From Eledone cirrhosa (Eukaryota), in assembly GCA_964016885.1 (NCBI GenBank), contig OZ024742.1, forward strand, positions 273,854,001 to 273,918,000: DNA of 64,000 bases. The letters run 5' to 3'. This document shows, in pieces, positions 70 through 62,387 of the stretch (position 1 is its first letter; the number at the start of each line of letters is the position of its first letter). Made by a program: the position numbers and the translations under genes. The notes under the pieces were generated by a model. It was given only the letters and a program-made list of their open reading frames with translations, ran no database searches and was not told the origin of the DNA.

Positions 70-407
70 CATATATATAAACATGCAAACGCATGAATTA
101 TCCACAGTTCAAATTAAAGTCAGTAAAAATTACAGGTTAGATATCTAAACTATATATTTAAAACAGAGATAGACAAATAAAGATCTGAATCAAAGTTTAA
201 AATATCCAAAAAACTATACGTTATGCATATCCAACCTGCAAACAAGTTATTAAACAAGTGTCGCTCATTAAGACATTAGTTCCATTATAAATGATTAGAA
301 GATAAAGCATTATTAAAGTTTTATAAGCCGTTATGATGTATATGTTCAACTGTAGATGATGTACGTCTAAAACCAGGCTTGGTTGCTTACTGTTTTTTCC
401 TGACTTT

Positions 408-2914
408 ATGTACAGACGAAAAATGTCGGAAGATGGCGGGTTTACAGTGCACATTGGGACATACGAAGTAGACAATAGGTGGATAGTGCCGTACTGCCCT
501 ATTCTGTCCAAGGCGTTCAACACTCACGTCAAAGTAGAGTTTTGTAACTCCGTGAAGTCCATCAAATATATCTGCAAGTACATGAATAAGGTCTCAGACG
601 CTGCTATGTTTGGCCTGCAGCAAAACGGCAATCGGGACGAAGTTACACAGTACCAAGTGGGTAGGTACATAAGAAGAAACGAGGTCTTCTGGAGCATGTT
701 CGGTTTTCCCTTGTATCAAAGGCACCCACCCATCCAACAACTTGCTGTTCACCGTGAAAACGGTCAACGCTTATACTACACTGCTTCCACTGCTGCTCGA
801 TTGGTTGAGGAGCCGAAGACACTACCCTCACTGCCTTCTTTAACTTTAGTCAAGTCGATCCATTCGCCCAAACCTTGCTGTATCCACAGGTGTCGTCCTA
901 CTACATCTGGGAAAAAAAACAAATGGCAATGGATGCAGAAGGGTCAAAACATTGATGGATACTCTGCCATTAAATTTGACAGTTGCCTCGGGATAGTTTA
1001 CACAGTTCATCCAATCCAACAGGAGTGTTTCTACCTTGGTCTGCTACTTCATAAGGTTAGGGGACCAACGTCTTACCAACATTTGAAAACAGTCAACGGT
1101 CGGCTTTGCCCTACTTTCAGAGAGGCCTGATTAAGACATGGACTGTTAGAAGACTCGCGGACGCTGCCATTTTACAGTCGCCGAAAAGTCTCAGGGTTCT
1201 CTTTACAGTGCTTCTGCACATTTGCGAAGTCTCAGATCCAGTCTTTCTATGGTTGATGTATAGAGATGCCCTGGCGGAAGACTTTTACCACCAAGCACAA
1301 TTGCGGTATCCTAGCCTTGATGCTGCCAGTGACGACGTCTACAACTGTGCTTTGATTGACGTGGAAAACAGGACTGTTTCACTGGGTGGGAATACTTTGC
1401 CAGTATACTTTGCCGCAACCAGTACGGACAGGGACGTATAACCTTCCGACATATCTTATTCACCATACAGCCTGTGATATTGACGCTCTTGGCCAATACG
1501 TCGGCGAAACAGAGCCAAAACTCCTTCGAGGACAGCAGCGGGCCTACAACACTATTTTCGACCATGTGTGAAACCGGAAAGGGGGAATCTTCTTCCTAGA
1601 TGCACCCGGAGGGACAGGAAAAACGTTTGTAACTAAGCTTCTTCTAGCCAAAGTGAGGCAGCACAAGGACATTGTGTTAGCCGTGGCATCCTCTGGTATT
1701 GCTGCAACTTTGTTACCCGGCGGTAGGACAGCGCACTCAGCCTTTAAGCTCCCCCTGAACTTGGCAACAGCGGAAACACCGTCCTGCAACATTAGCAAAA
1801 CTTCGGACAAGGGACTGGTTTTCCGAAGGTGTCAGCTCATTGTGTGGGATGAATGTGCCATGGCCCTTAAACGAGCTCTGGAAGAGCTAGACACAACTTT
1901 GCAAGACATCAGAGACTGCCAGACTGCGATGGGAGCTGTCACTCTTCTCATATCCAGCGACTTCCGAGAGACCCTTCCCGTTATTCCCAAGAGAAGCAGG
2001 CCAGATGAAGTCCGGGTGTGCCTGAAGTCCTCTCCGTTGTGGCAAAAGGTAACAACGTTCACCCTGACAACTAACATGAGAGCCCAACTGCACGGCGACC
2101 AACTGGCAGCAGAGTTTGCTTCGGATATTTTCTCACTTGGCGATGGCAAGATTACTCTCGATGGAGATGGCGAATTGTCACTCAGTCCAATTTGTACCAT
2201 TGTCGACACAGTCTAGGACCTCAAGGCTCAAGTGTTTCCCAGTCTTTCTGATAACTACCAAGACATGAATTGGTTATGCGAAATAGCTATTTTAGACCCC
2301 AAAACAGCACAGTGAACCCTATCAACGAGCAACTGTTGCATTCTCTTCCTGGAATGCTGCATATTTACAAGTCCGTCGATACAGTCCCCAACCAAGACCA
2401 AGCGGTAAACTACCCTGTAGAATTCCTCAATTCCCTAGAACCTCCTGGACTGCCTCCTCATAAACAGGGACTAAAAGCTGGAACTCCAATAATGCTTCTT
2501 AGGAATTTGGAACCTCCAAAACTTTGCAACGGCACACGTCTGGTTATAAAGAAGGTAATGCAGCATGTCGTTGAAGACACCATTATTTCATGGTGTGGAA
2601 AAGGAGAGGATGTGTTCGTTCTCAGAATACCACTCATTCCATCAGGTGCAGAAATTCCGTTTACCTTCAGACGCCTTCATTTTCTGCTTCGCATAGGTTT
2701 TGCCATGTCTATTAACAATTCCCAGGGGAAGACACTTTCGGTGGCAGGACTTCACTTGGTAAAATCATGCTTCTTATACGGCCAACTATACGTAAGCTGC
2801 TCCAGAATGGGGAGCAAAGGAAGTCTTTTCGTGTACACTCCACGAGGAAAAACAAAGAACATTGTCTACCAAGAGGTTTTACGCCAAGATGACATGTGGG
2901 CTCAAACTGTCTAA
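408..2914 (+). pseudogene. Helitron Rep/Pif1-family helicase, frameshifted
   Basis: ORFs 408-1130, 1106-1441, 1653-2216 and 2270-2914 are collinear pieces of one protein, broken by stops and frameshifts. Confidence 0.92.
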
Positions 2915-4100: not shown

Positions 4101-4109
4101 AATAACAAC

Positions 4110-4147
<38 letters not shown>

Positions 4148-4268
4148 GTGTTTCTACTATTGGCACAAGGCCAGCAATTAACCAGTACATTACTGGTACT
4201 TTATTTTATCGACCCCGTAAGGATGAAAGGCGAAGTTAACTTCGGAGGGATTTGAACTCAGAATGGCA
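4148..4268 (-). mobile_element. tRNA-derived SINE, 5'-truncated
   Basis: Reverse complement of the SINE body at 34137-34320, from the B box to the AGAAACA end. Confidence 0.9.
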
Positions 4269-9244: not shown

Positions 9245-9660
9245 TAATAATAATAAATGTGAAGACTAAAATGCAAAGAGGGCTCAATAAGGATAAATAT
9301 ATAGCAAATATATAAGAACCCCAGAGCAAGTATTTATTAAAATAACACCTTAATGCTTAAGCAAAGAATCGCTGCTTTCACCCTTAACGATATCTTCTGA
9401 AACTAAAAAATCAATCTGTGAAATGCAGTAGTAAATCTTTCGTAAAACGTTGCAACCGAAGGAAAACAGGAAGACTATACTTTGGTTCGTGAAGACGTTC
9501 CCTGGAAATGAACGGAAAAAAGCGAAGATAATACGTCGTTATGTGGATCGTTGAAAACAAATGAAGTCGTAGACTAATATTCTATTTAGGAAACCGAACG
9601 ATTCTCAGCTTCAGAGTTAAGAATAATGTAAATAAATTAGTAGAAGGAAAATGACAGAGG
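9245..9660 (+). repeat. Unclassified dispersed repeat; second copy inverted at 32955-33580
   Basis: Shared blocks such as AAAACGTTGCAACCGAA..ATACTTTGGTTCGTGAAGACGTTCCCTGG. Both copies start next to (TA)n. Confidence 0.85.
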
Positions 9661-22057: not shown

Positions 22058-25000
22058 GGCGACCTACGTAGGAAATCGTATTATCGTGAGTTCCGCAAAG
22101 TTTTGTTGTTTTCAGTTGTTTCGAATTGCCAGTCATGGGAAATGTTGTTGTTAAGTGTTTATAAGTTCACATATATTGCTTTCTGTAAAGGCCACTAAAT
22201 AATATTGCGGCCTTGAGCCCAAAATGTAAACTTTTATTTGTCAAACAAAATATTTCTCTGAAAAAAAAACATTGACAACAAATATCCTGTTTTTAATAGA
22301 CAAACAACCCTCCCACCGCCGCCATAATTGTAAAGCTTGCCACGGTTACCAACACTGAAAATATAATTAATAGCAGTCTCAATTATTTAAATTTGCCGCA
22401 TACAGACATCGATTTCCGGTCATTATCAATAACTGCAGGTGTTAAAGCCGCCAACCCCACCACCACAATGTCAAAAAGAACAACCAACACCGCTAATACC
22501 ACCACCACCACATAAAGGCCTAGGTGTGTCGTTTGAGGTGAAGGAACACACCTAAAGGCTTTCTGCCCTCAGGCTAAAAATTTGAGGACGCCTCTCCTAC
22601 CCACCCCAGTGACCCAAACATCAAAAACACCATCAGCAGAAATAGGAGCAACAAATGTACCAGAAACAACAGAAGCAACTGTAGCAGCAGCAACCCAACA
22701 ACTGTAGCAGCAACAGTAGCAAAACTAACACCACCACCACCCACCGCGCCAGAATTAACACCAGCGCCTCCACCATCCACCACGCCACAACCAAAACCAA
22801 CGCCTGTGGAGGATTTTTCACTCTCCGACCTATCGCAACTGGAGACAGATTGTGACGACGAGGAGTGGGAAACTGTATCAGGGAAAAAGAAAGAAAAGAA
22901 CCCCAAAAAGAAAATGTCCATTTCCTTTGCCGTCCAAAAACAAAATGCAGGGGGAAACAAATAAGCAAACAAACAAAACAGTTAACGCAGCTACGCCACC
23001 ACCCACCATCACCATCACCAACACTACAAAAATCACCAACAAGCGAAACAGAAACAAACCCACAACAAACGCAAACAAAACAACCAAAACTATACACATT
23101 ACACAGCATTACATTTGAACAATAACCAATTATTACATTAAATCCAACCCAACACCAGCATTATTGAAAAAATACTACCCAACACCCCAAAAATTCACAC
23201 CACCTCCACACATACAAATCACTCGCATCACAGAGAAAACGTACACGACACTAAAATTAAAATTCCCCACAGACATCGGAGACTTCCGACGAAGACTCTC
23301 CAGGGGGATTTATAAAAATATCCTTCCGGAGGAAGCCACAAGCAGTGAGAAGTACGGAAAAAACCATCTTTCCTCCACGAGATGTGAGGAAAGTGGTCTT
23401 TCCCATCTTTTTCCACTCCTTTTTCAACATGACCTCATTCAGAATAGGCAGCATAAATGCGCGTGGCATGCGGTCGTCATGGAAGCAGGGCCACCTGCTC
23501 AACAACCTCAGGTCACTAAACATAGATGTGGTGGCCATCAGCGAGACCAGAATCTCCGAAGCACGAGCCTTCGCACCGATCTTCGGCGGCTACGATGTGT
23601 ACGCATCTCCCAACCGTCCTAGATCGGAGGGAGGAGTTGCTGTGATTTTTCGGAGAGGCTTGGATCTCGTCATACGGGCCATCTTCCTGGACCCAGAAAG
23701 TAAGTTGGTGGTGCTGGACGTGACTAGCGGATACGGGCAAGCTTTCATGCTAGTGGCCGTCTATGCCCCGACAGGAGCAGGGCGGCCTGATTTCTTCCGA
23801 CGTCTAAGGAACGTCCCGCTTTTAGTGTGAGAGGGTGACTGGAACGGGATCTCAGATGCACACTGGGACTGTGTAGGATTAGCGGATATGTTAGGAGGGT
23901 TTAAAAAGCCTTGCAAACCTTCTCAGGAGATTTCAACTGTCTGTCAGGTACCGTCTGAATATCCCGAAAGTGCCAATGTGGACTTGGACAAACCGTATCG
24001 GGTCATCCAGCTCATATCTAGATAGGGTAATGTGTAGGGAAATAGATAGGTCTAGCATAGGCTGTCCACATTTCAAAATAGTCGACTACACGGACCATAA
24101 ATTCCTGATTTGTAAGGTTGACTTAGATAAGCTTCATAGACAGGGACCCGGCTACTGGAAGCTAAACGCGTCCTTACCAGCGCGCAAGGCCTACAGAGAC
24201 CGGATTAGCGAACTAGTTAAGCGGGCGTTGACGGGGGCCATCGCCAACAACAAATGTAGGTCTGCACTGAAAAGAGCGATTAGAATAGAGTCGATTAGGT
24301 TTAGTAAAGCTTTAGCAATAGAGAAAAATAGAGTACAGGCAGAACTAGTTATAAAATTAGACAAGGCGCTTAGTAAAGTCATCGCGACCGACCTACTTGC
24401 GGCGAATTTGGTCCTTGACCAATTCTTCAATGCAAAGCACGAAGGCTGCGTTGTCAGAGCTAGGGTGCTAGCTCTCAGACACGAGGAGACGAAAGCCGTT
24501 CAATGGGCCCGAGTGGCGGAGGCGCATCGAGGCAACAGACCCACGGTCCGGTCTTTGGTGGACCACGAAGGGCGCATGCTGTTCGATCCCGGGCAAGTGT
24601 GTGAAGCTTTTCAGCGACAATTCACTCAGCTGTTCAGGGGCAGTGGCGGCCGCATCGTGGGATGGACTTTAGTGCCTACCTCGACGGACTGCCGCGGCTC
24701 TCGGCCACTGAGGTGGAGTGTTGCGAAAATCCCATAACAGCAGCTGAAGAACGGGAGGCAATTAATGACTACACAAAGGGTAAATCGCCTGGTTTTGATG
24801 GTCTTCCCTATGATCTTACGTACACATGCAAGATTTGTTCGGAGGCCTCTTGGCGGACGTCTATTGCAACTGGCAACAGAATGGGAGAATTCCCAACTCT
24901 GTGAGCCTAGGAGCGGTGGCGCAGCTGAGAAAGGATCCGAACAAGGTAGATTACATAGATAAGTTCAGGTCCATAACTCTGCTAAACACAGAGTTCAAGA

Positions 25001-26999
25001 TTTTGGTCAAAGTGCTAGCAAAGAGGTTGGCGCTTGTCGGTGGTGGTCTCGTGTGAGAGGCGCAGACAAGCGCCATTCCAGACAGATCCATCCACGACAA
25101 CCTTCACCTCATGCGATACATCATGGAGAAGTAGCTAGGGAACCTGGCACGGGTGGGTACTTGTTCAATTTATATCAGTCGAAAGCTTTCGATAGGTTCG
25201 ACCATGGTTATCTGGCGGCAGTCCTGAGGGCTGCTGGCTTTGGGACAGTTTTCAGAGGCTGGATCGATGCCATGCACAGCGACATCTGCTCTGTGGTTAG
25301 AGTGAACGGTCACCTTTCGGAACCGTTCAACATCATGCTCTCGGTCCGCCAAGTATGTCCCCTCTCGTCCCTCTTGTACGTATTGACTGCACAACCTGGA
25401 GACGTAGTGGGGGGTCCCACGCGAACTAGGATGCGGAAGATCCGTGTCTGCATATGCGGACGCTGTCCCGGTGGTGGTGTCGAACGCCAAACACATAGAG
25501 GCGATCGGCACTACTCTAAAATAATACGAAGCGGTGACAGGAGCAATGATCAACTAGGAAAAGTCGGTGAGCCTGCAGCTCGGCACCTGGAGAGACAGGT
25601 CCATGCCGTCCAACAGCGTCGTCGGGTGCTGGACGGACGGACCGGTTAAATTGCTAGGGATTTGGCTGGCCGTCCGGACCTCCAGACCCACAAGAACTGG
25701 GACGAGGTGACGAGAAGAGAGGCCTCTCTCACCCAGAAATGGGCAGAGAGGAATACATTGCGTCCGTCATCTAACACCGCCTCACTGCGATAGAGCATTT
25801 GCTCTTTAGCTTTTTGTGGAAGGAACGCTCTCCGATGGTGAGGCGGTCCATCCGCTGTCAACACCCGCTACGGGGAGGGCTGGGAATTCCGTGGCTGATG
25901 ATGCGCAGAAATGCCTCCAGGCTACAATATCTCCACCTTTTCCTAGACGGTGATCAGGTGTGGTCGCCGTTTGCTAGACGCGTCTTTCCCCAGCTCGTCT
26001 CCTTGAGAGAGCTGCATTCCTGGGTCAAGCGAAGACCGAGAGGGAGTGCTTGGAGACTGGAATGTCTTCAGGTGCTCACAGCCCTCGACCAGTCGGGAAA
26101 TGTGATCGGTGGAAACTTTATCTTGGCGTTCTATAGAGGTTTAGTGGAGGGTAAGAGCGACGACGTAATTGGGGAAATTCTAGGCGTCAACAAAAGTCAA
26201 CTAGCCAATCTCTTCGGAAGAACTTTCGGGCCGGGGCCTATGGTCAACTTCCAGAAATCCCTGGCCTCGCAGTGCTACCGAGGGGCTTTGCCATTACGAG
26301 ATAAACTCTACAAGAATGGAAGTGTCGTCAGCCGGGAATGTCCGAGATGCGCGCAGGGCCACGAAACCGCCCTGCACGCACTCGTCCAGTGTCCGAGCAT
26401 TTCTGATTTGTGGGTTTATGTCGAAAACCTGCTGTCGCGTGTAGGACGGATCCAGCTATCAGCTGAGTCCATCGTGAGGATTGCCTCGCCCTCTTCCTTT
26501 AGCTGGCAGGGCAGGCAGTTTTTATCTGTCTGGTGGTGGCGAAAGAGATGGTATGGTGGACGCGTTTGAAAGCGCTGAAGGCGAGCACTTACCAGTTCAT
26601 TGATGCCCTGATTAACTTTTTCAAAGTTCATATGAAAAAGGAAATCAGCATTTTATTGAAAGATGGGTGAGAGAGGCAAGAATGGTCCGTGTAGATGGGC
26701 CTACGCTGAGTATGTGCCTATAAATTGAAAGTGGAAAACTAGGAGAGGGCACTTGCCCTGGTGGTCAGGGTCACCGTGGCTTTGTTAATGGGCTTCCTCC
26801 ACGAACGTCCTTCGGAAGCCCCCCCCCCCCCGTCCCCCGACTGGGGAATTTTTCATTGGTTACTTTTTGTTACATCCTGTTTCTGTTTTTCTTTTTACAC
26901 GCAGAAATGCCAATTTGTACCGTCCTGTATAGTCTTGTATTGTCCTGTATTCTCCTTAATGTCTTACTTTGTGTAAACCCTATGGTTAATAAAGAAAGC
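22058..26999 (+). mobile_element. Tx1/L1-clade LINE with 5' UTR, partly deleted ORF1, ORF2 and ATT tail
   Basis: 5' UTR shared with 28182 and 52161(-). ORF1 zinc knuckle remnant RPRCVV*GEGTHLKAFCP near 22517. ORF2 is APE-RT-Cys domain. Ends AATAAAGAAAGC followed by (ATT)n. Confidence 0.92.
23429..26723 (+). pseudogene. Tx1 ORF2 (APE endonuclease, reverse transcriptase, C-terminal Cys/His motif), frameshifted
   Basis: MTSFRIGSINARG, VAISET, VAVYAP, SYLDRV, YTDHK, GPGYWKLN, KSPGFDGLP, FRSITLLNTEFKIL, QSKAFDR, VRQVCPLSSLLY, CPRCAQGHETALHALVQC. Confidence 0.92.
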
Positions 27000-27023
27000 A
27001 TTATTATTATTATTATTATTATT

Positions 27024-27758: not shown

Positions 27759-27783
27759 ATTATTATTATTATTATTATTATTA

Positions 27784-27968
27784 GGGCGGTGGATTGGTAG
27801 TATCGGTAGAGGGTCGGACGCCATGCTTTCTAGCATAGTTACGTCCCTTTACGATCTGAGTTCAAATCCCGCCGAGGTTGACTTTGCCTTTCATCCTTAC
27901 GGGGTCGATAAAATAAAGTACCAGTGAGGCACTGGGTAGTTGCTGGCCTTGTGCCTAAAGTAGAAACA
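27784..27968 (+). mobile_element. tRNA-derived SINE, full length
   Basis: A-box-like TGGTAGTATCGG, B box GAGTTCAAATCC, central GCCTTTCATCCTTACGGGGTCGATAAAA; sits within (ATT)n. Confidence 0.92.
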
Positions 27969-28055: not shown

Positions 28056-28059
<4 letters not shown>

Positions 28060-28163
28060 AATCCCGTCGAGGTTAACTTTGCCTTTCATCCTTACGGGGT
28101 CGATAAAATAAAGTACCAGTAATGCACTGGGTACTTGCTGGCCTTATGCCAAATGTAGAAACA
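28056..28163 (+). mobile_element. tRNA-derived SINE, 5'-truncated
   Basis: Same body from TTCAAATCCCG to AGAAACA; within (ATT)n. Confidence 0.92.
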
Positions 28164-28181
28164 ATTATTATTATTATTATT

Positions 28182-28432
28182 GGCGACCTACGTAGGAAAT
28201 CGTATTATCGTGAGCTCCGCAAAATTTTGTTGTTTTCAGTTATTTCGAATTGCCAGTCATGGATAATTTTGTTGTTAAGTGTTTATAAGGTCACATATAT
28301 AGCTTTCTGTAAAGGACACTAAATAATATTGATTCCTTGAGCCCAAAATTTAAACTTTTATTTTTCAAACAAAATATTTCTTTGAAAAAAAAACATGGAC
28401 GACAAATCTTCTGTTTTTAACAGACAAACACC
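28182..28432 (+). mobile_element. Isolated Tx1 5' UTR plus ORF1 start
   Basis: Close match to 22058-22308 (GGCGACCTACGTAGGAAATCG...); retains the ATG at 28395; no downstream body. Confidence 0.88.
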
Positions 28433-32954: not shown

Positions 32955-33577
32955 TTACTTCATCTACTAATTTATTTACATTATGCGGTGGATTGGCATC
33001 ATCGGTAGATAGTCGGACGCCATGCTTTGCAGCAAAGAGTTACGGCCCTTTATGATCTGAGTTCAAATCCCGCCGAGGTTAACATTGCCTTTCATCCTTA
33101 AGGGGTCGATAAAATAATGTACCAGTAATACCCTGGGATAATTGCTGGCCTTGTGCCAAAAGTAGAAACAATTATTTATAACTCTGAAGCCGAGAATCAT
33201 TTGGTTTCCTAAATAGTCTATGACTTCATTTATACCATAAACGTGGCTTTGTTTTTGCGTGTAATTGCTCTCCCGCTCCACATAATGACGTATTATCTTC
33301 GCCTTTTTTAGTTCATTGCCAGGGAACGTCTTCACGAACCAAAGTATCGTCTTCCTGTTTTCATTCGGTTGCAACGTTTTTTAAAATATTTACTTCTGCG
33401 TTCACAGATTGATTTTTTTAGTTTCAGAAGATCCCGTTAAGAGTGAAAGCAGCAATTCTTTGCTTAAACTTTAATCTGTTATTTTAATAAATATTTGCTC
33501 TAGGGTTCTTATATATTTGATATATATTTATCCGTATCGAGCCCTCTTCGGATTTTAGTCTTCGAATTTATTATTAT

Positions 33578-33624: not shown

Positions 33625-34136
33625 CTATATAAGTTTGTTATTTCTCACTAATACATTTATCCCCCACTATTTTTTTTCCTTCGTTTTTAACCACATTCTT
33701 TAATAACATCTAACTCTTATTTATCACATCTATATGAATTAATATAAATGTATCCCTATAAATATTAATTTTTTTTAATAGATCTAAATTCCTTATGTTT
33801 TTAATAAGATTGGTATTTCTCACTAACACATTTATCCTAAAATTGTATTCTCCTTCTATTTTAACATTAGCATTATTCTTTAATAACATCAAATTTTCGT
33901 GTACCTTTCACCGGCTTGACCTCATTTCATCCCAAAAGTAATCTTTTCATTCAAAGTATTATTTCCATTCAAAAGTGAAGTCTGCATTCCTCTAAATTAA
34001 ATTTCTACTACTACTATTCTATCAACTTGACCACTTACTACTCTTCTATTGGTCAATTCGAAACCTGTTCCCAAACATACCTATTATATTAAATCTTTGT
34101 TGGTGTTTTTCAATAAATAAATATCATTATTTCTGA

Positions 34137-34320
34137 GGCGGTGGATTGGCAGTATCGGTAGAGGGTCGGACGCCATGCTTTCCAGCATAGTTACGTCCCT
34201 TTACGATCTGAGTTCAAATCCCGCCGAGGTTGACTTTGCCTTTCATCCTTACGGGGTCGATAAAATAAAGTACCAGTAATGCACTGGATAATTGCTGGCC
34301 TTGTGCCTAAAGTAGAAACA
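34137..34320 (+). mobile_element. tRNA-derived SINE, full length, with 11-bp target-site duplication (TSD)
   Basis: A box TGGCAGTATCGG and B box GAGTTCAAATCC; TSD ATTATTTCTGA at 34126-34136 and 34321-34331. The central segment resembles, from memory, the Nin/Deu SINE domain. Confidence 0.95.
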
Positions 34321-34497
34321 ATTATTTCTGAAGACTGCATATATATGTGTAGGTATGTATATTCCCTCTGATAGTTTGTAAAATGTTTACATACATACCA
34401 ACAAACATATATATATCCTAGAAACGATCGTAAAATGATGAATTTTTTAATATAAGGAACTGTTGCCTTGTTTTTATTCATTGTTTTTTATTAATTT

Positions 34498-36870: not shown

Positions 36871-37199
36871 ATGAATGTTGACTATGTAAAGAAAAATGGG
36901 GAAGTAAATCTAAATTAAGTATTTTAATTAATGCGTTAAGATTTGCTTACGATAAGCATTTAATTACATTTTTTTAATCTAATGTTTTCCATAATTATTA
37001 ATTATTATTTATATTAAAAGTAAATAATTTATATAGGATTTCAGAGCACCATATACTAAATATGGTTTTGATAAAAGTGTTTAGCTTTGTAAAAGAAATG
37101 CTTCTATGTATTAGGTTTAAAAGTATTTGTATCTATATTGTAAATATATTGTAAATAGGCAACATATATAGACCATAATATAGTAGGTTCTATAAATTA

Positions 37200-38545
37200 T
37201 AGTCATTGTGAAATGTCTTGGAGAAACGATGCAAACAAGAATTAAATATTTCCTTTTTTTTGTTAATAATTTTACCAGATTTCTTCAGTACAAAATTGAC
37301 AAATACGTGAGAATAACGAAGTTTGGTATTCAGGAGCGTCCGTAATTTTCCTCCAAGAGATTGAATAGTCAGTCTTATTGTCTTTTAAAGACCAAATTAG
37401 TTGTGACAGCGAAGTTGAGTATTTTTTATCTGATCGTTTAAAAGTATGTTTGTGATTATACCATCGCTCCGTAAATGTTGATGAAGTTTCTCCTATATAG
37501 TCATACAGCCTAACCTTAGTTTTAATGGTGCATTTATATAAACATTTCTATCTAGGCAATTATTCTGTAGTGGGCATAACATATTATTCCTGCAATTACA
37601 TTTTCTTATACTGTTATTTGAAGATACCGTGTTATTATTCATGTATAGGCTATTATTATTATTCCTAATGCTATTAATTATATTGCTATTAATATTTGGG
37701 TTTACTTCAGTTTGGTTTAATTTTAGATTCTTATTATTAATTCTTGCTATATTCTGGGATAGATTCATAGGTGTAGAGTAAGAGAGCTTGACTGTATGTC
37801 TGTTAAAAATGGAGTGATACTTGTTGGACTTAGGAAAACATTTATCTATAGATTTAAAGAATTGGTGTGCTAAAGGTGCCTTAATTCCTGGAGGTGAATA
37901 CCAAATTATATTTCTAGTCTGGCTTTTCTATCTGATTTATTATTTGGGTTGAGTGGTTTATATTCATTATTCGCCGAGGTTAACTTTGCCCTTCATCCTT
38001 ACGGGGTCGATAAAATAAAGTACCAGTAATGCACTGGGTAATTGCTAGCCTTGTGCCAAAAAGTAGAAACAATTATTATTATAATTAACAGATTGGTTTT
38101 ACTACTCCTATCTATGAAATTAATTTTATTAGCTCTGTGGAGAGCGTCATTATAATATTCTGCTTTGTTATCAAATATATTTTTATTTGCTGAGAGTCTA
38201 GAGATTCTTTGCTGGACACTATTGACTATAGCTTTTTTAACGTTTCTATGGTGGTTTGAGTTGAAGCTAACATAATTGAGATTTTCATTAATCTTATGGA
38301 ATGTGTAATATAGGCCTGAGTTAAGGTTTAATGTAACATCTAGGAAATTAAATGTGTTAATATTGTTTGCCATTTCTAACTTACGGTCGTAATTATTAAT
38401 GAAGTCTATAATAATTTTCTTTTTTCTGTTAATTTCCCTATTGTTATGTTTATCTACTATGAACAATGCATCGTCACGATACATACATCCGGCAAGTTCC
38501 GGCAATTTCCTATGTAAAGAGTTAAGAATGAAGATGCCAACGAGG
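37200..38545 (-). mobile_element. Penelope-like retroelement (RT plus GIY-YIG), 5'-truncated
   Basis: RT YRDD and NFLDVTLNL; linker CNCRNNMLCPLQNNCL (CxCx5C, which I recall as Nematis-like); endonuclease YKCTIK..YDYIGETSSTFTERWYNHK near 37540-37450. Confidence 0.88.
37972..38071 (+). mobile_element. tRNA-derived SINE, 5'-truncated, inserted in the PLE
   Basis: CGCCGAGG..AGAAACA flanked by ATTATT. Confidence 0.92.
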
Positions 38546-38554
38546 TAAATTAAA

Positions 38555-39170
38555 AAACAATTATCAAAACCATATTTCGTATATGGTGCTCTGAAATTTT
38601 ATATAATTTCTTTACTTATAATATAAATAATTGTTTCTACGTTAGGCACAAGGCCAGCAATTGCCCAGTGTATTACTGGTATTTTATTTTATCGAACCCG
38701 TAAGGATGAAAGGCAAAGTTAACCTCGGCGGAATTTGAACTCGGAATGGCAAGGGCCGTAACACTATGCGTCAAAGCATGGCGTCCGATCTTCTACCAAT
38801 ACTGCCAATCCAAAGTCATTATAACTTATAATATAAATAATAATTAATAATTATGGTAAACATTAGATTGAACAATATATTATTAAATGCTTATCGCAAG
38901 CACACCTTAACGCATTACTTAAGATACTTAATTTAGAGATACTTCCCCATTTTCTGTTTACGTAGTCAACATACGATATATACGATATATTTCAACTTAC
39001 ATAACTGTCTAAATGTTATATTACTAACAATATACAAACATAGATTATACTGCAATACTGTACATTTGTATTTAAGCAACATAATTAGTTCCACATTCTT
39101 AAAATATATGTAAAACATACATATTAATAGGTACATGATCTCTCTTACGCTGATTTATAAATCTATGTAT
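38555..39170 (+). repeat. Inverted copy of the PLE 3' region 36688-37075, placed at the PLE 5' end
   Basis: TTATCAAAACCATATTT.GTATATGGTGCTCTGAAAT and TAATTAGTTCCACATTCTTAAAATATATGTA are reverse complements of sequence at 37037-37073 and 36736-36766. Confidence 0.88.
38632..38812 (-). mobile_element. tRNA-derived SINE with 18-bp TSD
   Basis: ACTTATAATATAAATAAT at 38614-38631 and 38824-38841, which reads ATTATT.. on the SINE strand. Confidence 0.92.
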
Positions 39171-39480: not shown

Positions 39481-39647
39481 TCGGTAGAAGGTCGGATGTC
39501 ATGCTTTGCAGCACAGTTACGTCCCTTTACAGACTGAGTTCAAATCCCGCCGATGTTAAGTTTGCCTTTCCTCCTAACGGGGTCGATAAAATAAAGTACC
39601 AATAATACACAGGGATAATTACTGGCCTTGTGCCAAAAGTAGAAACA
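39481..39647 (+). mobile_element. tRNA-derived SINE, slightly 5'-truncated
   Basis: Body match; TTATTAATAATAAT on both sides. Confidence 0.92.
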
Positions 39648-43635: not shown

Positions 43636-43693
<58 letters not shown>

Positions 43694-43694
<1 letters not shown>

Positions 43695-44467
43695 CTTTCT
43701 TTATTAACCACAAGGGTTTACATAAAGTAGACATTAAGTCCAGTACAGGACAATACAGGACAGTACAAATGGGCATTTCTGCGTGTAAAAAAAAACAAGA
43801 AACAGAGGTTGTAATAATAGAACAATGAAAAAATTCCCCAATAGGGGGGAGACTTCCGACGGACATTTGTGGAGAAAGCCCATTAAAAAGCCACAGTGAC
43901 CCTGACCACCAGGGCAAATGCCCTCTCCCACTTTTCCACCTTTAATTTACAGACACATACTCGGGCCATTCTTGCCTCTCTCACCAATCTTTCAACAAAA
44001 TGCTGGGAAGAGAGCACTTCCCTCTCTACCCTGGTTTTCCTTTTCAAATGAAATTTGAAAAAGTTAATCAGGGCATCACCGAAGATGTAAGTGCTCGTCT
44101 TCAGCCCTTTCAAACGTGTCCACCATACTATCTCTTTCGCCATGGCCACCAGACAGATAAAAACTGCCTGCCATTCCCGGCTAAAGGAAGAGGGTGGGGC
44201 AATCGTCACGATGGACTCAGCTGATAGGTGGATCCGTCCTACACGCGACAGCATGTGTTCGACATAAACCCACAAGTCAGCAATGCTCGGACACTGGACG
44301 AGTGTGTGCAGGACGGTTTCGTCGCCCTCCGCGCATCTCGGACATGCCCGGCTGACGGCACCTCCATGCCTATAGAGTTTATCCCGAACTGGCAAAGCTC
44401 CTCGGTAGCACTGCCAGGCCAAGGATTTCTGGAAGTTGTCCATAAGCCTCGGCCCGAAAGTTCTTCC

Positions 44468-44468
<1 letters not shown>
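43694..44468 (-). mobile_element. Tx1 LINE 3' fragment
   Basis: ORF 43883-44536 includes CPRCAEGDETVLHTLVQC; the 3' end AATAAAGAAAGC runs into (ATT)n. Confidence 0.92.
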
Positions 44469-44511
<43 letters not shown>

Positions 44512-44516
44512 TTAAT

Positions 44517-45976
44517 GGTTTCTTTATTAGCCACAAGGGCTAACATTAAGAAAAATATTACAGACGGCACAGAACGGACAGGACGATACAAAATGGGTTT
44601 TGGCCGTGTAAAATGTTTATAACAAGAAGAGAAAAATGTGTAAAAACAAATAAAATAATTCAAACAAAAATTCCCCAAAACTGGAGAAACCTCCGAGGGT
44701 CACTCGTGGTGGAAACCACACAAAAGACCACGGCCACCCTGACCACCAGGGCAAGAACCCTCTCTCAATTCTCCCATTCCTCAATCTACAGGCGCATACT
44801 CAGAACGGGCTCGTTCACTCGAACCAGATTCGCCACTTTCGCCACCGTGCAACAGAATTACTAAAAGATAACACTTGCCTCTCCATCCTGATTTTCGTCT
44901 TCAAGTGAAATTTGAAAAAGATAATCAGCCTTCAACCTTGTGTACCATACAATCTCTTTCGCCATGGCCGCCACCAGGCAGATGTAAACTGCCTGACCTT
45001 CCTCCTCCTTAAAGGTGGTTTGTGTGCCTATCAGCGCAATGGACTCAGTCGTTAACCGGATCCGTGACAGCAAATGTTCGACATAGCTTCACAATTCTCG
45101 GACACTGAACGAGTGCGCGCATGACGATTTCGTCGTCATGCGCGGACATGCTAGGTTGACAGCACCTCCGTGCCTGTAGAGCTTATCCCGAACTGGCAAG
45201 ACTCCTCGGTAGCACTGCCAGTCCAGGGATTTCTGGAAGTTGTGCATAGGCCCCTGAAAGTTCTCTTGAAGAGGGCGAACAGCTGATCCTCTTCGGCGAC
45301 CAGGCTCTCCCCGTGAACGTCGTCACACTTCTCCTCCACTAGCCCTCTATAGAACGCCGAGGTGTATGTTCCACCGATATCAGTGCCCAGCTGGTAGAGG
45401 GCTGTGAGCACTTGGTGACATTCAAGCTTCCAAGCGCTATCCCTTGGTCTTTTCATGATGCAGGACTGCAGCTCAGTCAAGGAGACGAGCTGGGGAAAAG
45501 CGCGTGTGGCAAACGGTGTCCACACCTGTTTAACGTCAAGGAAGCACCAGAGATGTCGCAGTTGGGCGGGGGCAAGTTACGATGGTAGAAGATGACGGAC
45601 GCGATCTACGCATTCGCCACTTGCGCCCGACATTTCAGAGACATGCTTCTCGTGGACCATTTCTGGTGAGATAGGCCACGCTGCTCGTCACCTCGCTCCA
45701 GTTTTTCTCCATATTGAGCTACGGCCGAACTAGACCTCCGAGCAAGTTAACCGGCCCTTCCGTCCAGCGCCCCACAACGCTCTCGGAGGCATGGTCTTGC
45801 CTCTCCAGGTGCCGAGTTGCAAGCCCACCGACTTTTTGTGGTTTATCTTTGCTCCTGTCACCGCTTCGTATTCCTTGAGAGCGCTGCCGAGCATCTGGTC
45901 GTACCTGGTGGTCTACACAATCACGGTAACATCGTTGGCGTAAGCCGAGACGTATCTCGCATATCCGAATACGTAC
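44517..45976 (-). mobile_element. Tx1 LINE 3' fragment (related subfamily)
   Basis: ORF2 C-terminal pieces (WTPFATRAFPQLVSL); 3' end CCCTTGTGGCTAATAAAGAAACC then ATT. Confidence 0.9.
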
Positions 45977-46006: not shown

Positions 46007-46287
46007 GTTTCCTTTATTAACCACGAGGATTGGCATAGAAAATAACATTATGGCAGCACAGGACGGTACAGGACGGTACAAATGTTTCTTTCTTCGCGTA
46101 GTGTAAAAAGAAATGTAATGACAAAAAAGAAACAAAGGAAAATATCGCAATACGGAGCAGACTTCCGATGGATACTCGTGGAGAAAGCCCATAAAAAAAC
46201 CACGTTGACCCTGAACAACAGGGCAAGTGCCCTCTCCCAGGTTTCCACCTCAAATTTACAGCCGCTTACTCAGAGCAGGCCCGTTCA
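46007..46287 (-). mobile_element. Tx1 3' UTR fragment
   Basis: Matches the other Tx1 3' UTRs; ATT repeats on both sides. Confidence 0.85.
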
Positions 46288-49200
46288 TAAAATAATAATA
46301 AGGGTTTCTTTATTAGCCACTAGGGCTAAAATGTCCAAAAATATTACCGTCGGCACAGAACGATACAGGACGATACAAAGTGGGTTTCGGCCGTTTGAAA
46401 AGGTTATAAAAAGAAAATAGAAGTGTGAAAAAATAATTCAAAAAATTCCCCAATAGGGGAGAAACATCCGAGTGTCACTCGTTGCGAAAACCACATAAAA
46501 GACGACGGTCACCCTGACCAATCAGTTCTCATAGTTCTCCCATACGTCAGTCTAAAAGCTTATACTCAGAGCGAGCCTGTTCACTCGGACCTGACTCCTC
46601 ACTTTCACACACCGTTCAACAAACTTACTAGAAGATAGCACTTGTCCCTCCAGCCTGATTTTCGTCTTCAAGTGAAATTTGAAAAAGATAATCAGAGATC
46701 CGCCGAAGAGGAAAATGTCCGTCTTCACGCGTTTGAACCTTGTCCACCATACAATTTATTTCGCCATGGTCACCAGGTAGATGAAGACTGCATGCCCTTT
46801 CTCCGCCTTAAAGGAGGATGGTGGGGCTATCTTCACAATGGATTCAGTCGGTAACCGGATCCGTCATAGACACGACAGCAACTGTTTGAGATAGCCCCAC
46901 AAGTCAGCAATGCTCGGGCACTGAACGAGTGCGTACAGGACGGTTTCTTCGCCCTGCGCGCATCTCGGACAGGCTAGGCTGAAAGCACTTCCCTGTATGT
47001 AGAGCTTATCCCGAACCGGCAATACTCCCCGGTAGCACTGCCAGGTCACGGATTTCTGCTATGATGAGCTGGGGGAAAGCGCGTCTGGTAAACGGCGACC
47101 ACACCTGTTCACCGTCAAGGAAGCACCAGAAATGTTGCTACCTCAGCAGATGTTGGCGCATCATCAGCTGTGGCATCCTGATTAATTTAACCGGTCCTTC
47201 CGTCCAACGCCCCATGACACGGTCGGACAGCATTGACTTGCCTCTCCATGTGACGAGTTGCAAGCCCGCTGATTTTACAGGTTAATCATAACTCCTGTGA
47301 CGGCTTCGTATTCATTGAGAGCGTTGCCGAGCATCTGGACATGCATGGTGATCGACACAATCACGATAACGACGTTGGCGTAAGTATACACGTATCTTGC
47401 ACAACCCAGTTCGTGTGTGACACTACTCATCGTCTCCAATTTGTGCAGCAACGACGCTAGGTCCAATAGGTGCAAGAGTGACGAGAGGTTTCAACACTGG
47501 TAATCCACTCATATGATGCTGAACAGCTCTGACAGGCGACTGTTCACTCTCACAACAGAGCAGATGTTGCTGTCCATCGCAGCGATCTAACGCCTGAAGA
47601 CCAGCACAAAGCCGGCCGCATCGAGGTCCAGCGCCAGGTACAGATTGAATTAAATTCATCCAAGTTGATCAATGCCCCACCCGTTCCAGGTATATTAACC
47701 ACCGCATATCTGCGACTCTCCAGCCAGATAACCGACAAGCGCCAATGTCTTTGCTAACACCTTGGCCAAAATCTTGAACTTTGCGTTGCCGAACATTTGT
47801 AGCATGTTCGCATAAAGCTTGTAGAGCAGACTATCCAAACGTACCGATTTGCCCCTCGTGCAGTCAGACATCACTTCCCGTATTTCATCTGCTGTTACCG
47901 GCTTTTCGCAGCACTGCGCTGCGGTCGTCGAAAGCCGCGGCAGTCCGTCGAGACACGTACCGAAGTCCATACTCTGATCCCGCCCACCGCTTCTCCCGAA
48001 CAGTTGAGGAAATTGCTTTTGATAAACCTCGCACATCTAGCCGACCCCACACACCATCCGGGCCCATTGGACAGCTTTCGTTCCTTCATGTTTTAGAGTA
48101 CGCGTTCTAGCTCTGACAACGCAGCCTTCATGCTTTGCGTTGAATAATTGTCGAGTTCCAATCTCGCCACAAACACGTCGGTTGTGATGGTTGTCCTAAA
48201 CGCCTCTTCTAGCTTTCTAACTCTATTTTCCTGTAGCATTAATCCTTTGCTAAACCTCATCGATTCTACTCTAATTGCCTTTTTACGGGTAAATAACCAC
48301 CTGTTGTTGACGATCGGACACGTCAAGGCGCGCCTAAATAATTCGTTAATCCGGTCACTGTAAGCTTTTCTCGCCGGGAACAATACGTTTAGCTTCCAGT
48401 AACCGGGCCCTTGCCTATGGAATATTTCTCAGTCAACTTCACACATCACAAATTTGTGGTCTATGTCGTCGATTACCTTAAATTTTGGATAACCTACACT
48501 AGCCTTATCTGTTTCCCTACAGAAAGCGATATCTAGATACGATCTGGATGACACGACGCGGTTTTCTCATGTCCACATTGGCGCATTCGGATAATCCAGT
48601 CTATATCTGTCAGACAGTTGAAAACGTCTGAGAGGTTGATGAGGTTTTAACACCCTTCTCCCCTGTCTACTACTCCACATAATCCCACCATGCATCTAAG
48701 ATATCGTTCCAGTTGCGCATTAACAAAGAGCGGTATGTTCCAAGAAGGTCTCTAGACTTCTGAAGAAATCAGAGCGTCCTGCCTCTGGTTGGGCATAGAC
48801 GGCTACTAGCCTGAAAGCATCGCATTCACTGCCGGTCAAGTCCAGCACCATCGACTTACCTTCTGAGTCCAGAAAGATCGCTCGTATGGTGAGGTCCAAG
48901 CCTCTCCAAAAAAGCACAGCCACTCCTCTCCCCGTTCTCGGACAGCTGGGAGATGCGTATACATCGTAGCCGCCGAAATCGGTGCGAAGGCTCGTGCTTC
49001 GGAAATTCTGGTCTCGCTGTAAGCCACACCATCTATGTTCATTGATCTTAGATCTTTGTGCAGGTCAACCTGCTTCCATGACGACCCCAGGGTACGGGCA
49101 ATTTTTTCTGCCTATTCTGAGTTAGTTGATGTTTGGTGAGGAAAAAGATAGGTCAGAGAGTATCAATTACCCTGTTTACGTAGAGAAGAGGAAGTTGAAT

Positions 49201-50093: not shown

Positions 50094-50269
50094 ATTGGCA
50101 GTATCGGTAGAGAGTCGGACGCCATGCTTTGCAGCATAGTTACGTCCCTTTACGATCTGAGTTCAAATCCCGCCGAGGTTAACTTTGCCTTTCATCCTTA
50201 CGGGGTCGATAAAATAAAGTACCAGTAATGTACTGGATCATTACTGGCCTTGTGCCAAAAGTAGAAACA
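50094..50269 (+). mobile_element. tRNA-derived SINE
   Basis: Body match; ATTAT on both sides. Confidence 0.92.
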
Positions 50270-52210: not shown

Positions 52211-55200
52211 GCTTTCTTTATTAGCCACAAGAGTTGTCATAAAGTATAACATTAAGGACAGCACCGTACGGTACAAGACAGGACAAATGGGCATTTCCGC
52301 GTGCTAAGAAAAAAGAAAAACAAAAGAAATGACGAAAAGAATGAAACAAATGTAAATTACCCAGTAGTGGGGAGATGTCAGAAGGACACTCTTGGAGAAA
52401 GCCTATTAATAAAGCCATGGTGACCCTGACCACCAAGACAAGTTTCCGCTTCCAGTTCTAGCCACCAGTCTATAGGCGCATACTCGAAGCAGGCCCATTC
52501 ACTCGGGCCATACTTGCCTCTCTCACCCATCTTTCAACAAATTGCTGGGAGGAGAACCTTTCTCTTTCCCCCCTGATTTTCCTTTTCAAATGAAATTAGA
52601 AAAATTTAATAAGGGCATAACCAAAGAGGTAAGTGCTGGTCTTCAGCCCTTTCAAACATGTCCACCACACAACCTCTATCCTTATGATGGCGACCAGGCA
52701 TATAAAAACTGCTTGCCCTTCCTGGCTAGAGGAAGGCGGTGGGGCAATCCTGACGATGGACTCAGCTGTTAGCCCGATCCGTCTTATACGCGACAGTAGC
52801 TGTTAGACTTAAACACATGAGTCAGCGATGCGTTGACACTGGACGAGTGCGTGCAGGCAGGTTTCTTCGCCCTGAGCACATCTCGGACAGCCCCAGCTGA
52901 CGGCACTTCCATACCTGTAGAATTCATCCCGAAGTGGCAAAGCTCCCCCAGGGCACTGCCAGGCCAGCGATTTCTGGATGTTTTCCATGAGCCCCGGCCC
53001 AAGAGTCCTCCCGAAGAGATTGGCTAGTTGATTTTCGTCGACAGTCAGAATCTCCCTAAGTACGTCGTTGCTCTTTCCCCCCACTAACCCTGAAGAAAAC
53101 GCCAAGGTGGAGTTTCGACCAATCGCATCACCCAATTGGTCGAGGTTGTAAGCGCCTGAAAACATTCCAATCACCATGCGCTCCCTTTAGGGTTTCACTT
53201 GATCCAGGACTGCAGCTCCGTCAAGGAGGCTAGCTGGGAAAAATGCCTCTAGAAAACGGTGACCACACCAGATCACCGTCGCGGAAAAGGTGGTGATTTT
53301 GTAATCTGAGCGCATGTTTGCGCATCATCAGCCACGGCATGCCTAACCCACCACGTACCGGAGGGCCAACTTACGGCAAGCAAGACGGTTTCATCGTCCT
53401 GCACGCATCTCTGACAGGCCCGGTTGAGGACACCTCTATATCCGTAGAGTTTATATCGAACTTCCAAACCTCCTCGGCAGCAAGAAAATAGTGGCTATTT
53501 GATGTTCGTCGGTGTGTAGAGTTTCCCTAAGAATGTCGCCGATTGTATCTGCCACTAACCCTCTATAGAATGCAAAGGTGTTGTTTCCACCGATCATATT
53601 GCCCGATTGTTGAAGCACTGTATGCGCCTGTAGAAACTCTAGTTTCAAAGCACTCTCCCTCGGTCTCCGCTTGACCTAGGACTGTAACTCGGTTAAGAAT
53701 ATGAGCTGGGGGAATATGCATCTCGTGAATGGGCACGAGGCCTGTTCACTGTTAAAGAAGATATAGAGATATCATAGCCTCAGCGTATATCTGTGCATCA
53801 TTAGCCACCGCATTCCCAGTCCTCCACGTAGGGGCTATTACTCGGGTGCTGGTTTGGTTCTGAACTCCAGATGGACAGAAATTGTGATGAGATGACGAAC
53901 AGAGTGGCCAATCTCACCCAGAAATGGTCTGAGATAAAGCTGTCCCTGAAAGATAGGGCAGAGGTGGCGAACACATTCATTGAGTCCGTCATCTACTACC
54001 GATTGACCATCATACCTTGTCCCAAACCCCATTTGACGAGAGTCAATACATACAACAAGGACGAGAGGTTACAGTCCTGGTGGACCGAACGCATGATGTT
54101 GAACGTTTCCCAGAGGTAACCGTTCAGGCTGACCACAGAGCAGATGTCCCTATGCATGGCAGCTAACCATCCTTTGAAAACCGGCCCAAAGATCGTTGCT
54201 TTGAGGACCACCACCAGATACCGATGGTGGACACTAAAGAACGCTTTGGATTGATCCATGGTGTTCAACGCCCAACTCATGCCAGGTTCTTTAGCCCCAT
54301 CCTCTCTAATGTATCGCATGAGATTGAGATAGTCGTTGATGGGTCTCTTGTGAATAGCACATGTCTGTGCATCCCCTACCAGACCACCAACTACACGCGC
54401 CAAACACATTGCTAACACCTTCGCCAAATATTTTGAATTCTGTATTTAGCAGATATTTTCCTAAAATTATCTATATCGTCCCCCATGTTCAGTTCTTTTA
54501 TTAGCAGTACCATCACTCCATGTCTAAACAAAACGGAATTCTCCCATTCCGCTGCCAGTTGCAGTAGTTGTATTCCTAGAGGTCACCAAACAAGTCTGTC
54601 ATTTAACAATAAATATCGTTGGGCAGACAATCCACTCTAGGTGATTTGACACTGAAGCAATCACCTAATGACTCCTGTGTCTCGGCGGCCGTTATTCGCT
54701 TTTTGAAACACTCCGTTTCTGTCACCGACGGCCGCGGCAGTCAGTCAAGGTTGTGAAATCCACCTCACAATCCGACACGAACAGTCTGGTCAAGTGATGC
54801 TGAAATGTCGTTCACATCTTCTTGAGATCGAGTATCATGCGCCCATCATAGTGTTCAAGAGATCGAATTGTGGCTTTGTTGCCACGGCGCGCGTCTGCCA
54901 TATGGCCTCATAGAGCGGCTTTGGTCCTCTCAACTCTAAGTGCATGCGACTTAGCTCTGAACACGCGGCCTGTGTTCTTAGCATTGAAAAATTGGTCTAG
55001 GGCAAATTCGGCCCAAATAACGTCGGTTGCGATGCCTTTGCTAAATGCCTCGTCTAGCATTTTTCACTAGTTCTCCTTCTCTAGTTTTCTCTATTGAGAA
55101 ATGTGATTGATTCTTCTTTAATTGCCCTTTTCAGGGCATACCATGTTGATGATGATTTCCCCTGTCAACGCCCGTTTAACTAATTCACTAATCCGGTCTC

Positions 55201-62199: not shown

Positions 62200-62387
62200 T
62201 GTTTCTACTTTAGGCACTAGGCCAGCAATTACACGAGTGCATTACTGTTACTTTATTTTATCGATCCCGTAAGGATGAAAGGCAAAGTTAACCTCGGCGG
62301 GATTTGAACTCAGAACGTAAAGGGCCATAACACTATGCCTCAAAGCATGTTGTACAACGCTCCACTTATACTGCCAATCTGTCGCCC
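62200..62387 (-). mobile_element. tRNA-derived SINE, full length
   Basis: Reverse-complement body; lies tail-to-tail with Dong B across AAT repeats. Confidence 0.92.

Follow-up and report, generated by a model that had tools for sequence, protein, structure and literature searches.

The SINE at 34137 and its copies

A repeat-dense, 64-kb stretch of the genome of Eledone cirrhosa (contig OZ024742.1, forward strand, positions 273,854,001 to 273,918,000; hereafter called the window) contains a short interspersed element (SINE) at 34137..34320 (+), the 3' end of which resembles the ends of long interspersed elements (LINEs) of the Tx1 group; we consider it very probable that a Tx1-group LINE is the mobiliser of this SINE. 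The element is a young copy of the short form, its 5' end being uncertain by about 2 nt due to microhomology, with loose contig ends before 34137 and behind 34326. It is enclosed by the two copies of an 11-bp target-site duplication (TSD) starting with ATTATT (34126..34136 and 34321..34331, both +). The head carries an A-box-like motif (34147..34158, +) and a B-box motif (34212..34221, +) of RNA polymerase III (Pol III) promoters. The Tx1-like tail (34297..34320, +) is composed of a putative short stem (34297-34299 and 34305-34307) enclosing a CTTGT loop (34300-34304), followed by the AA and AGAAA that are common to Tx1.

The element is short, non-coding and present in high copy number, with 5' truncations and TSDs, as SINEs are. 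Indeed, exact 24-nt tails (in two variants) occur at least 150,743 times in the 3.0-Gb assembly, and the best 40 matches of the SINE in the genome were 98-100% identical. The initial annotation had called the SINE "tRNA-headed"; what stands of this description is the presence of the A and B boxes and a global similarity to tRNA-like genes of the genome that is weak (p 0.016-0.052 in six of seven and 0.18 in the other), but neither ARAGORN nor Rfam called a tRNA in the head, and no clear parent tRNA was found among 16 genomic tRNA search matches. Near-identical, dispersed tRNA-like sequences with varying anticodons (L277-L287) were also noticed, which are possibly a tRNA-derived repeat and not genes. 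Furthermore, the body of the SINE at 34137 still carries one AATAAA, so that the element is not stripped of every poly(A) signal. A long form of the SINE (L020, L048, L201, L203, L252 and L253) has about 30 extra nt ahead of the tail, and its ends (GAAATC, GAAACC) are a closer parallel to the ends of Tx1 subfamilies than those of the short form.

The window contains ten copies of the SINE. In addition to that at 34137, these are at 27783..27968 (+, within an ATT repeat and with an approximate 5' end), 28056..28163 (+, 5'-truncated, its ATT run being followed by a Tx1 5' stub that begins at 28182), 32985..33170 (+), 37972..38071 (+, 5'-truncated), 38632..38812 (-), 39481..39647 (+), 50094..50269 (+, a variant with a GCCA stem), 62200..62379 (-, inserted antisense into a Dong-like LINE at its TAA tail and hence on the ATT strand), and 4149..4262 (-, 5'-truncated and tail-to-tail with a Dong-like end). 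The copy at 38632 is flanked by an 18-bp TSD (38614-38631 and 38824-38841); the two clean TSDs starting with ATTATT that had been described before, namely this one and that around 34137, are thus present. As had also been described, all the copies run into ATTAT or (CT)TATT, with ATTAT in nine and CTTATT in one. Two of the insertions are backed by empty paralogous sites in the window, at about 9596-9650 for the copy at 32985 and at 36986-37040 for that at 38632. SINE boundaries and tandem SINE copies were visible in the contigs of sequencing runs, and no empty allele was found among the contig joints listed.

The Tx1-group LINE

A decayed, near full-length Tx1-like LINE with remnants of the APE and zf-RVT domains occupies 22058..26999 (+), with ATT on either side. 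Five Tx1-like 3' fragments lie on the minus strand: 43694..44470 with an A-type stem, 44517..45543 with an older B-type stem, 46007..46282, 46302..47058, and 52211..53361. All six of these LINEs end (at 26999, 43694, 44517, 46007, 46302 and 52211) with the motif TGG.TAATAAAG, as the initial annotation had noted for the end at 44517 and five others.

The 44517 copy belongs to an old subfamily, the members of which are 85-90% identical to each other, and the current driver is therefore likely to be a young Tx1 family with intact open reading frames (ORFs). Such a family surfaced in a protein search, from which we took 20 copies with long open frames, approximately 5.8-6.1 kb in length. ORF1 encodes about 715 amino acids where intact, and ORF2 encodes 1152-1246 (e.g., 1204) amino acids with the APE (Exo_endo_phos), RVT_1 and C-terminal zf-RVT domains. 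The 19 copies with a detected end, in which ORF2 has 1152-1204 amino acids, were 96-100% identical across the last 3.5 kb, and 19 of the 20 long copies begin directly behind (ATT)n. In a tree of reverse transcriptase (RT) sequences, which contained one named Tx1 reference and no vertebrate L1 row, the family formed a clade with an alligator protein named TX1 (support 99/94), outside which fell a protein of Closterium as well as the CR1-, RTE- and Dong-like sequences. The same region of the protein scored 234 bits to the alligator TX1 versus approximately 121 bits to human L1, albeit in different databases, and the nearest named relative of the ORF2 protein was found in Argonauta hians (73%). 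On its sequence, the LINE is assigned to the Tx1 group of the L1 clade, for which one named reference and the target specificity are the basis. No RNA dataset was listed among the sequencing runs matching the Tx1 query. We also observed tandem Tx1 arrays in the assembly (G000), with ends about 6.1 kb apart, at C1:441098534-441134911 (at least six units) and C2:188056359-188074641 (at least four units), as well as a 37-bp tandem array (L259:60-2090) resembling the 3' untranslated region (UTR) of an older, third Tx1 family.

Similarity between the SINE tail and the LINE ends

The ungapped identity of 18/24 between the SINE end and the Tx1 end at 44517 (-), from which the pairing had been proposed, was reproduced but represents the best case: the other five Tx1 ends in the window matched at 13, 15, 13, 15 and 8 of 24 positions (the last at 16/22 with an offset of -1), and the older B subfamily and the young intact family at 17/24 and 15/24, respectively. 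For statistics, two SINE copies were compared with nine Tx1 ends and seven other LINE ends (two CR1-like, two RTE-like and three Dong-like). These three labels follow from characteristic motifs and the RT tree and are not database names, the Dong-like elements being also closer to R2 than to L1. The loci inspected overall amount to about 1.3 Mb. When the match of the 34137 copy was anchored at the end and compared with dinucleotide shuffles, p was at most 0.0053 in seven of the nine Tx1 ends and 0.033 and 0.061 in the other two. None of the seven non-Tx1 ends matched in this anchored test (p 0.31-0.67 with the 34137 copy and within 0.19-0.72 overall). Of the three results that, according to the initial annotation, would speak against the pairing, two were thus not obtained with the ends compared, namely a better match in another clade and a match no better than that of shuffled tails.

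An empirical null gave a similar picture. Among 1286 genomic 24-mers abutting ATTAT, collected from 264 kb picked without regard to element content, nine reached 15/24, all of which were Tx1 (six) or SINE-like (three) ends. Over the last 24 positions of 97 Tx1 and 187 SINE ends, furthermore, 14 positions (CCTTGTG, AA and AGAAA) were at least 90% fixed in Tx1 and have identical letters in the SINE. A longer match of 45 nt, seen with the B subfamily, was rejected, since the register of its upstream motif arises only from the absence in the short SINE of approximately 30 nt that the long form contains. Metagenomes scanned for the tails of sister lineages yielded nothing.

What the initial annotation did not contain is that the shared CTTGT would form the loop of a hairpin, located 16 nt ahead of the 3' junction, and that the mismatches between the SINE and Tx1 tails are structured. 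The stems closing CTTGT are AACC/GGTT in the young Tx1 family, AGCC/GGCY in the B family, GGCC/GGCC (17 nt) in the third, older family, and GGC/GCC in the SINE, which allows two readings, namely a flipped pair, or the third family's stem short of one pair. Three of the four stem pairs are altered on both sides; 87.5% of the cells are paired versus at most 56% in slid controls, and the covariation score was reached by none of 500 shuffles. As these values come from 12 hand-picked rows that are related to each other, they are support and not a probability. In predictions of RNA folding, the hairpin forms with a probability of 0.8-1.0 in Tx1 3' UTRs and would form only locally in the SINE, where the predicted value exceeds 0.9 within the last 36 nt.

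Integration sites of the SINE and the LINE

We collected 194 non-redundant SINE ends, mostly at loci picked for element matches and 22 of them from the unselected 264 kb. ATTA follows at 170 of the 194, and an exact TSD of at least 7 bp was found at 110, in 85 of which it is not pure ATT. These 85 unique TSDs are 7-29 bp long, most commonly 15-19 bp; shuffled pairing gave 11.6, with a maximum of 19. The base preceding them (position -1) is C in 39, T in 34, A in 12 and G in none, so that C is enriched over its background of 14%. Since this base is outside the primer strand and is unlike the last base (A) of the young SINE, it likely reflects the endonuclease. In four cases, the TSD starts with G in both of its copies, which indicates that the junction is read from the target.

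TSD searches on the best-scoring Tx1 copies failed because most of them sit in microsatellites or are disrupted. Of the 213 young ends without a third ATT unit, 30 were selected, and 15 of these had both junctions. Nine of the 15 truncated young copies carry TSDs of 8-19 bp, all behind C or T. In one dispersed repeat, moreover, the same base has been hit by SINEs in L010 and L027 and by a 28-bp Tx1 stub in L302, and this hot spot is empty in the paralogs L023, L045 and L266. The two elements differ in their preference for microsatellites: of the 5927 young Tx1 ends counted (other continuations being uncounted), 5714 are followed by ATTATTA and 213 are not, whereas 108 exact SINE tails continue with ATTATTA in 42, with ATTATT and another base in 24, with other ATTA sequences in 34, and otherwise in 8. 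The expectation of the same integration signature for both elements is thus borne out in the (C/T)|ATTAT junction, the TSD size and one identical site, but not in the microsatellite bias.

Other elements around ATT repeats

Several other elements share these repeats. Tx1 or SINE ends stand tail-to-tail with Dong-like ends at 27000-27023, 43636-43693 and 4101-4147, with the two LINE clades on opposite strands of (ATT/AAT)n. The 3' UTR of a very young RTE-like family (L161-L190; 99-100% protein identity) includes an (ATT)n tract, which has been invaded by Tx1 in L097 and by a Dong-like element in L185. A young CR1-like family (L131-L160 and L221-L250) adds short (ATT)n tails and thereby fresh targets for Tx1 and the SINE; in L197, a truncated Tx1 is joined onto a CR1 end. 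Apart from these, broken frames of a PIF1-like helicase at 360-2914 (+) of the window probably belong to a decayed Helitron.

Discussion

The similarity of the tails, the covarying stem with its fixed CTTGT loop, the same type of TSD, the same site, and the young copies of both elements form the basis on which we pair the SINE with a Tx1-group LINE. The mobilisation of the SINE by Tx1 through recognition of the 3' end, as proposed in the initial annotation, is supported by the tail match and by the shared junction and TSDs, whereas the recognition step itself is what we infer from them; it is probable, in our view, that the LINE mobilises the SINE by recognising its tail, and we consider stringent recognition likely. 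The SINE, with the same end (hairpin plus AGAAA) and the same (C/T)|ATTAT junctions, would then probably be copied through binding of its tail by the ORF2 protein of Tx1 and target-primed reverse transcription. In this process, Pol III would transcribe the SINE and read into the flank, as is expected from the absence of a T4 run in the SINE (none before 34443), to give an RNA ending in the tail and AUUAU. The ORF2 protein would read the loop and the spacing instead of the letters of the stem, just as specificity lies in the loop and the stem may be exchanged in zebrafish L2 elements (PMC4176376). A nick in the bottom strand at ATAAT|R, made by its APE endonuclease, would release a 3' end for pairing with the AUUAU of the read-through RNA, so that synthesis would begin exactly at the end of the element; such a start fits a SINE without poly(A) tails. 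A second nick approximately 10-20 nt off would create the TSD. In Tx1 RNA, in turn, the AAUAAA about 8 nt before the end would direct cleavage into the ATT flank and leave several AUU units on the transcript, and this would explain the stronger microsatellite bias of the LINE.

Several observations weigh against this mechanism. The young Tx1 family, the likely driver, matches the SINE tail at 15/24 only, and this match is not significant in unanchored local alignment (p 0.06-0.35), in which two of the non-Tx1 ends do score (p 0.004 and 0.024-0.031). Among the SINE subfamilies, the evidence that the shared core is conserved is only suggestive (variable at 2/14 versus 5/10 positions, p=0.085). 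The covariation was scored on 12 hand-picked, related rows, and the pair probability of the terminal hairpin is predicted to be 0.07 or less in all seven full-length SINE RNAs folded. No Tx1 end with the stem of the SINE itself was found, a search with the hybrid pattern giving four matches that were all SINEs. As regards integration, a unique TSD was found neither in 20 Tx1 copies, most of them older, nor in 10 young copies that are truncated, the ATTATT start of the Tx1 TSDs was imposed by the search pattern with one of them (L310) being ambiguous, and Tx1 is far more bound to microsatellites (5714/5927 ends into an ATT repeat versus 42/66 comparable SINE ends).

Some of these points are shared by the alternative explanations. 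A chance likeness between AT-rich ends abutting one and the same microsatellite might be suspected from a short match with a length chosen post hoc and from its lack of significance for the young Tx1 in the unanchored test, but is hardly credible any longer and is refuted at the level tested by the anchored shuffles, the empirical null of 1286 sites, the covariation of the stem and the common TSD signature. Candidates other than Tx1 are provided by the young CR1-like LINE, which has copies of about 98% identity that terminate in ATT repeats, and by the Dong-like LINE, which uses the same microsatellite (Dong targets TAA; PMC3812793). Polarity alone cannot single out Tx1, given that the CR1-like family also ends with (ATT)n on its own strand. 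This family, however, shows no tail match, and its copies with both junctions have a weak flank match of at least 7 nt in 2/15 and a 5' ATTAT in 1/15, so that the ATT tail is self-made and TSDs are absent. The Dong-like LINE has the opposite polarity, its ends being followed by AAT in 36/37, and shows no match of the tail in the anchored test; the end of the young RTE-like family is unrelated, and its insertions are found in AT/GT repeats. Mobilisation of the SINE by the CR1- or Dong-like LINE is hence largely refuted and highly improbable.

It is also conceivable, although distinctly unlikely, that the true partner is an unsampled LINE, either a further or extinct Tx1/L1 family or an L2, Hero or R2 element, and that the Tx1 copies sampled here are mere relatives or neighbours of it. 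The missing Tx1 with the SINE stem and the modest extent of the loci inspected would allow for such an element, as would the older GGCC/GGCC-stem family, which aligns about equally well if one pair is removed and shows that more families exist. Nonetheless, no end other than those of SINEs and Tx1 reached 15/24 among the ATTAT-abutting sites, and the insertion at the identical site carries the young Tx1 family's own 28-bp end. The main rival keeps Tx1 as the partner but regards the tail as a vestige of the SINE's origin: recognition would be relaxed, and the pairing of the read-through AUUAU with the nicked target would decide. The hairpin predicted to be unfavoured in the full-length SINE RNA, the modest match of the young family and the merely suggestive core conservation are all compatible with this possibility, and SINEU has been proposed to use Tx1 without a common tail (PMC4494074). 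It appears unlikely to us, nevertheless, as the stems covary, yet the loop, the spacing and AGAAA have persisted in all Tx1 subfamilies and across the forms of the SINE. We thus favour recognition of the tail by Tx1. Its widest formulation, which we can put forward only tentatively, is that a minimal 3' hairpin is still recognised stringently by an animal Tx1-group LINE, which drives a SINE of more than 150,000 copies to (C/T)|ATTAT sites. This SINE would be the first partner of an animal L1/Tx1 element to be both tail-sharing and target-specific, and the pair would power much of the octopod SINE expansion, with the breadth of targets set by AUU read-through.

The tRNA-derived SINEs OK, OR1 and OR2 of octopus were reportedly described by Ohshima and Okada in 1994. 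The SINE studied here may be the OK family. These families resemble it as abundant tRNA-like SINEs of octopods, with no partner LINE given in the accessible portions of reviews. Annotations of octopus genomes list L1-Tx1 and mostly unclassified SINEs, unpaired in the text available (PMC13282606, PMC8967140), and the available parts of five more papers contain no such SINE-LINE pair (PMC4758252, PMC4824008, PMC3531059, PMC5786205 and PMC10294476). No tail-sharing Tx1-SINE pair was found in literature searches restricted to openly accessible papers. If the pairing is true, a driver can be named for one of the most abundant repeats of this genome.

In terms of the LINE, Kibi and Koshi are likewise Tx1-group elements inserting into microsatellites, but their targets are (TC)n and (TTC)n, respectively, and no partner SINE is given for them in the portions seen (PMC3812793, PMC4494074). 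There, TAA is listed for Dong alone (PMC3812793), and the Dong-like LINE here uses the opposite strand to Tx1. A close parallel in terms of partnership is SINEU of crocodilians, which was inferred from a common target and joint activity to be mobilised by Tx1-Mar (Kojima 2015, PMC4494074); in both cases, a SINE would use a Tx1-group LINE through a shared target. SINEU has, however, snRNA heads, poly(A) tails and a Mariner target, and for the 3' half of SINEU-1 its authors found no LINE that resembles it (PMC4494074), whereas the present SINE has a tRNA-like head, no poly(A), a (C/T)|ATTAT target and a 3' motif shared with the LINE. Given that one machinery appears to target narrowly for the LINE and more broadly for the SINE, the pair would, if true, offer a small system to separate endonuclease specificity from RNA-target pairing.

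Tail sharing with L1 relatives is in print for plants and algae, and we found none for animals in the papers searched; the pair would be a new combination of clades in a known kind of system. Among the 58 SINE-LINE pairs listed by Ohshima, just three SINEs are L1-tailed, in maize/sorghum and Chlamydomonas (PMC3472496, PMC3747384), and Table 1 of Ohshima 2013 holds no Tx1, octopus or cephalopod pair (PMC3747384). ZmSINE2/3 with LINE1-1_ZM and SINEX-3_CR with L1-1_CR are similar to our pair in that a tRNA SINE has a 3' end in common with an L1-clade LINE (PMC3472496, PMC3747384), and the maize pair even shows compensatory changes in a hairpin whose loop is conserved (PMC3472496). The plant and algal pairs share 45-80 nt (PMC3472496, PMC3747384), unlike the approximately 24 nt shared here with a target-specific, animal Tx1-group LINE. 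A mechanistic model is provided by UnaL2/UnaSINE and ZfL2, in which a short 3' stem-loop has a specific loop and an exchangeable stem (PMC4176376); those elements belong to the L2 clade and their recognition was shown by experiment (PMC4176376), whereas ours is predicted, with a weak hairpin in the SINE. Whether stringency is ancestral to the L1 clade and was relaxed to poly(A) in mammals and plants is a question that rests on the three plant and algal SINEs (PMC3472496), and a Tx1 pair in an animal, with copies that are young and intact, would, if true, make it directly testable.
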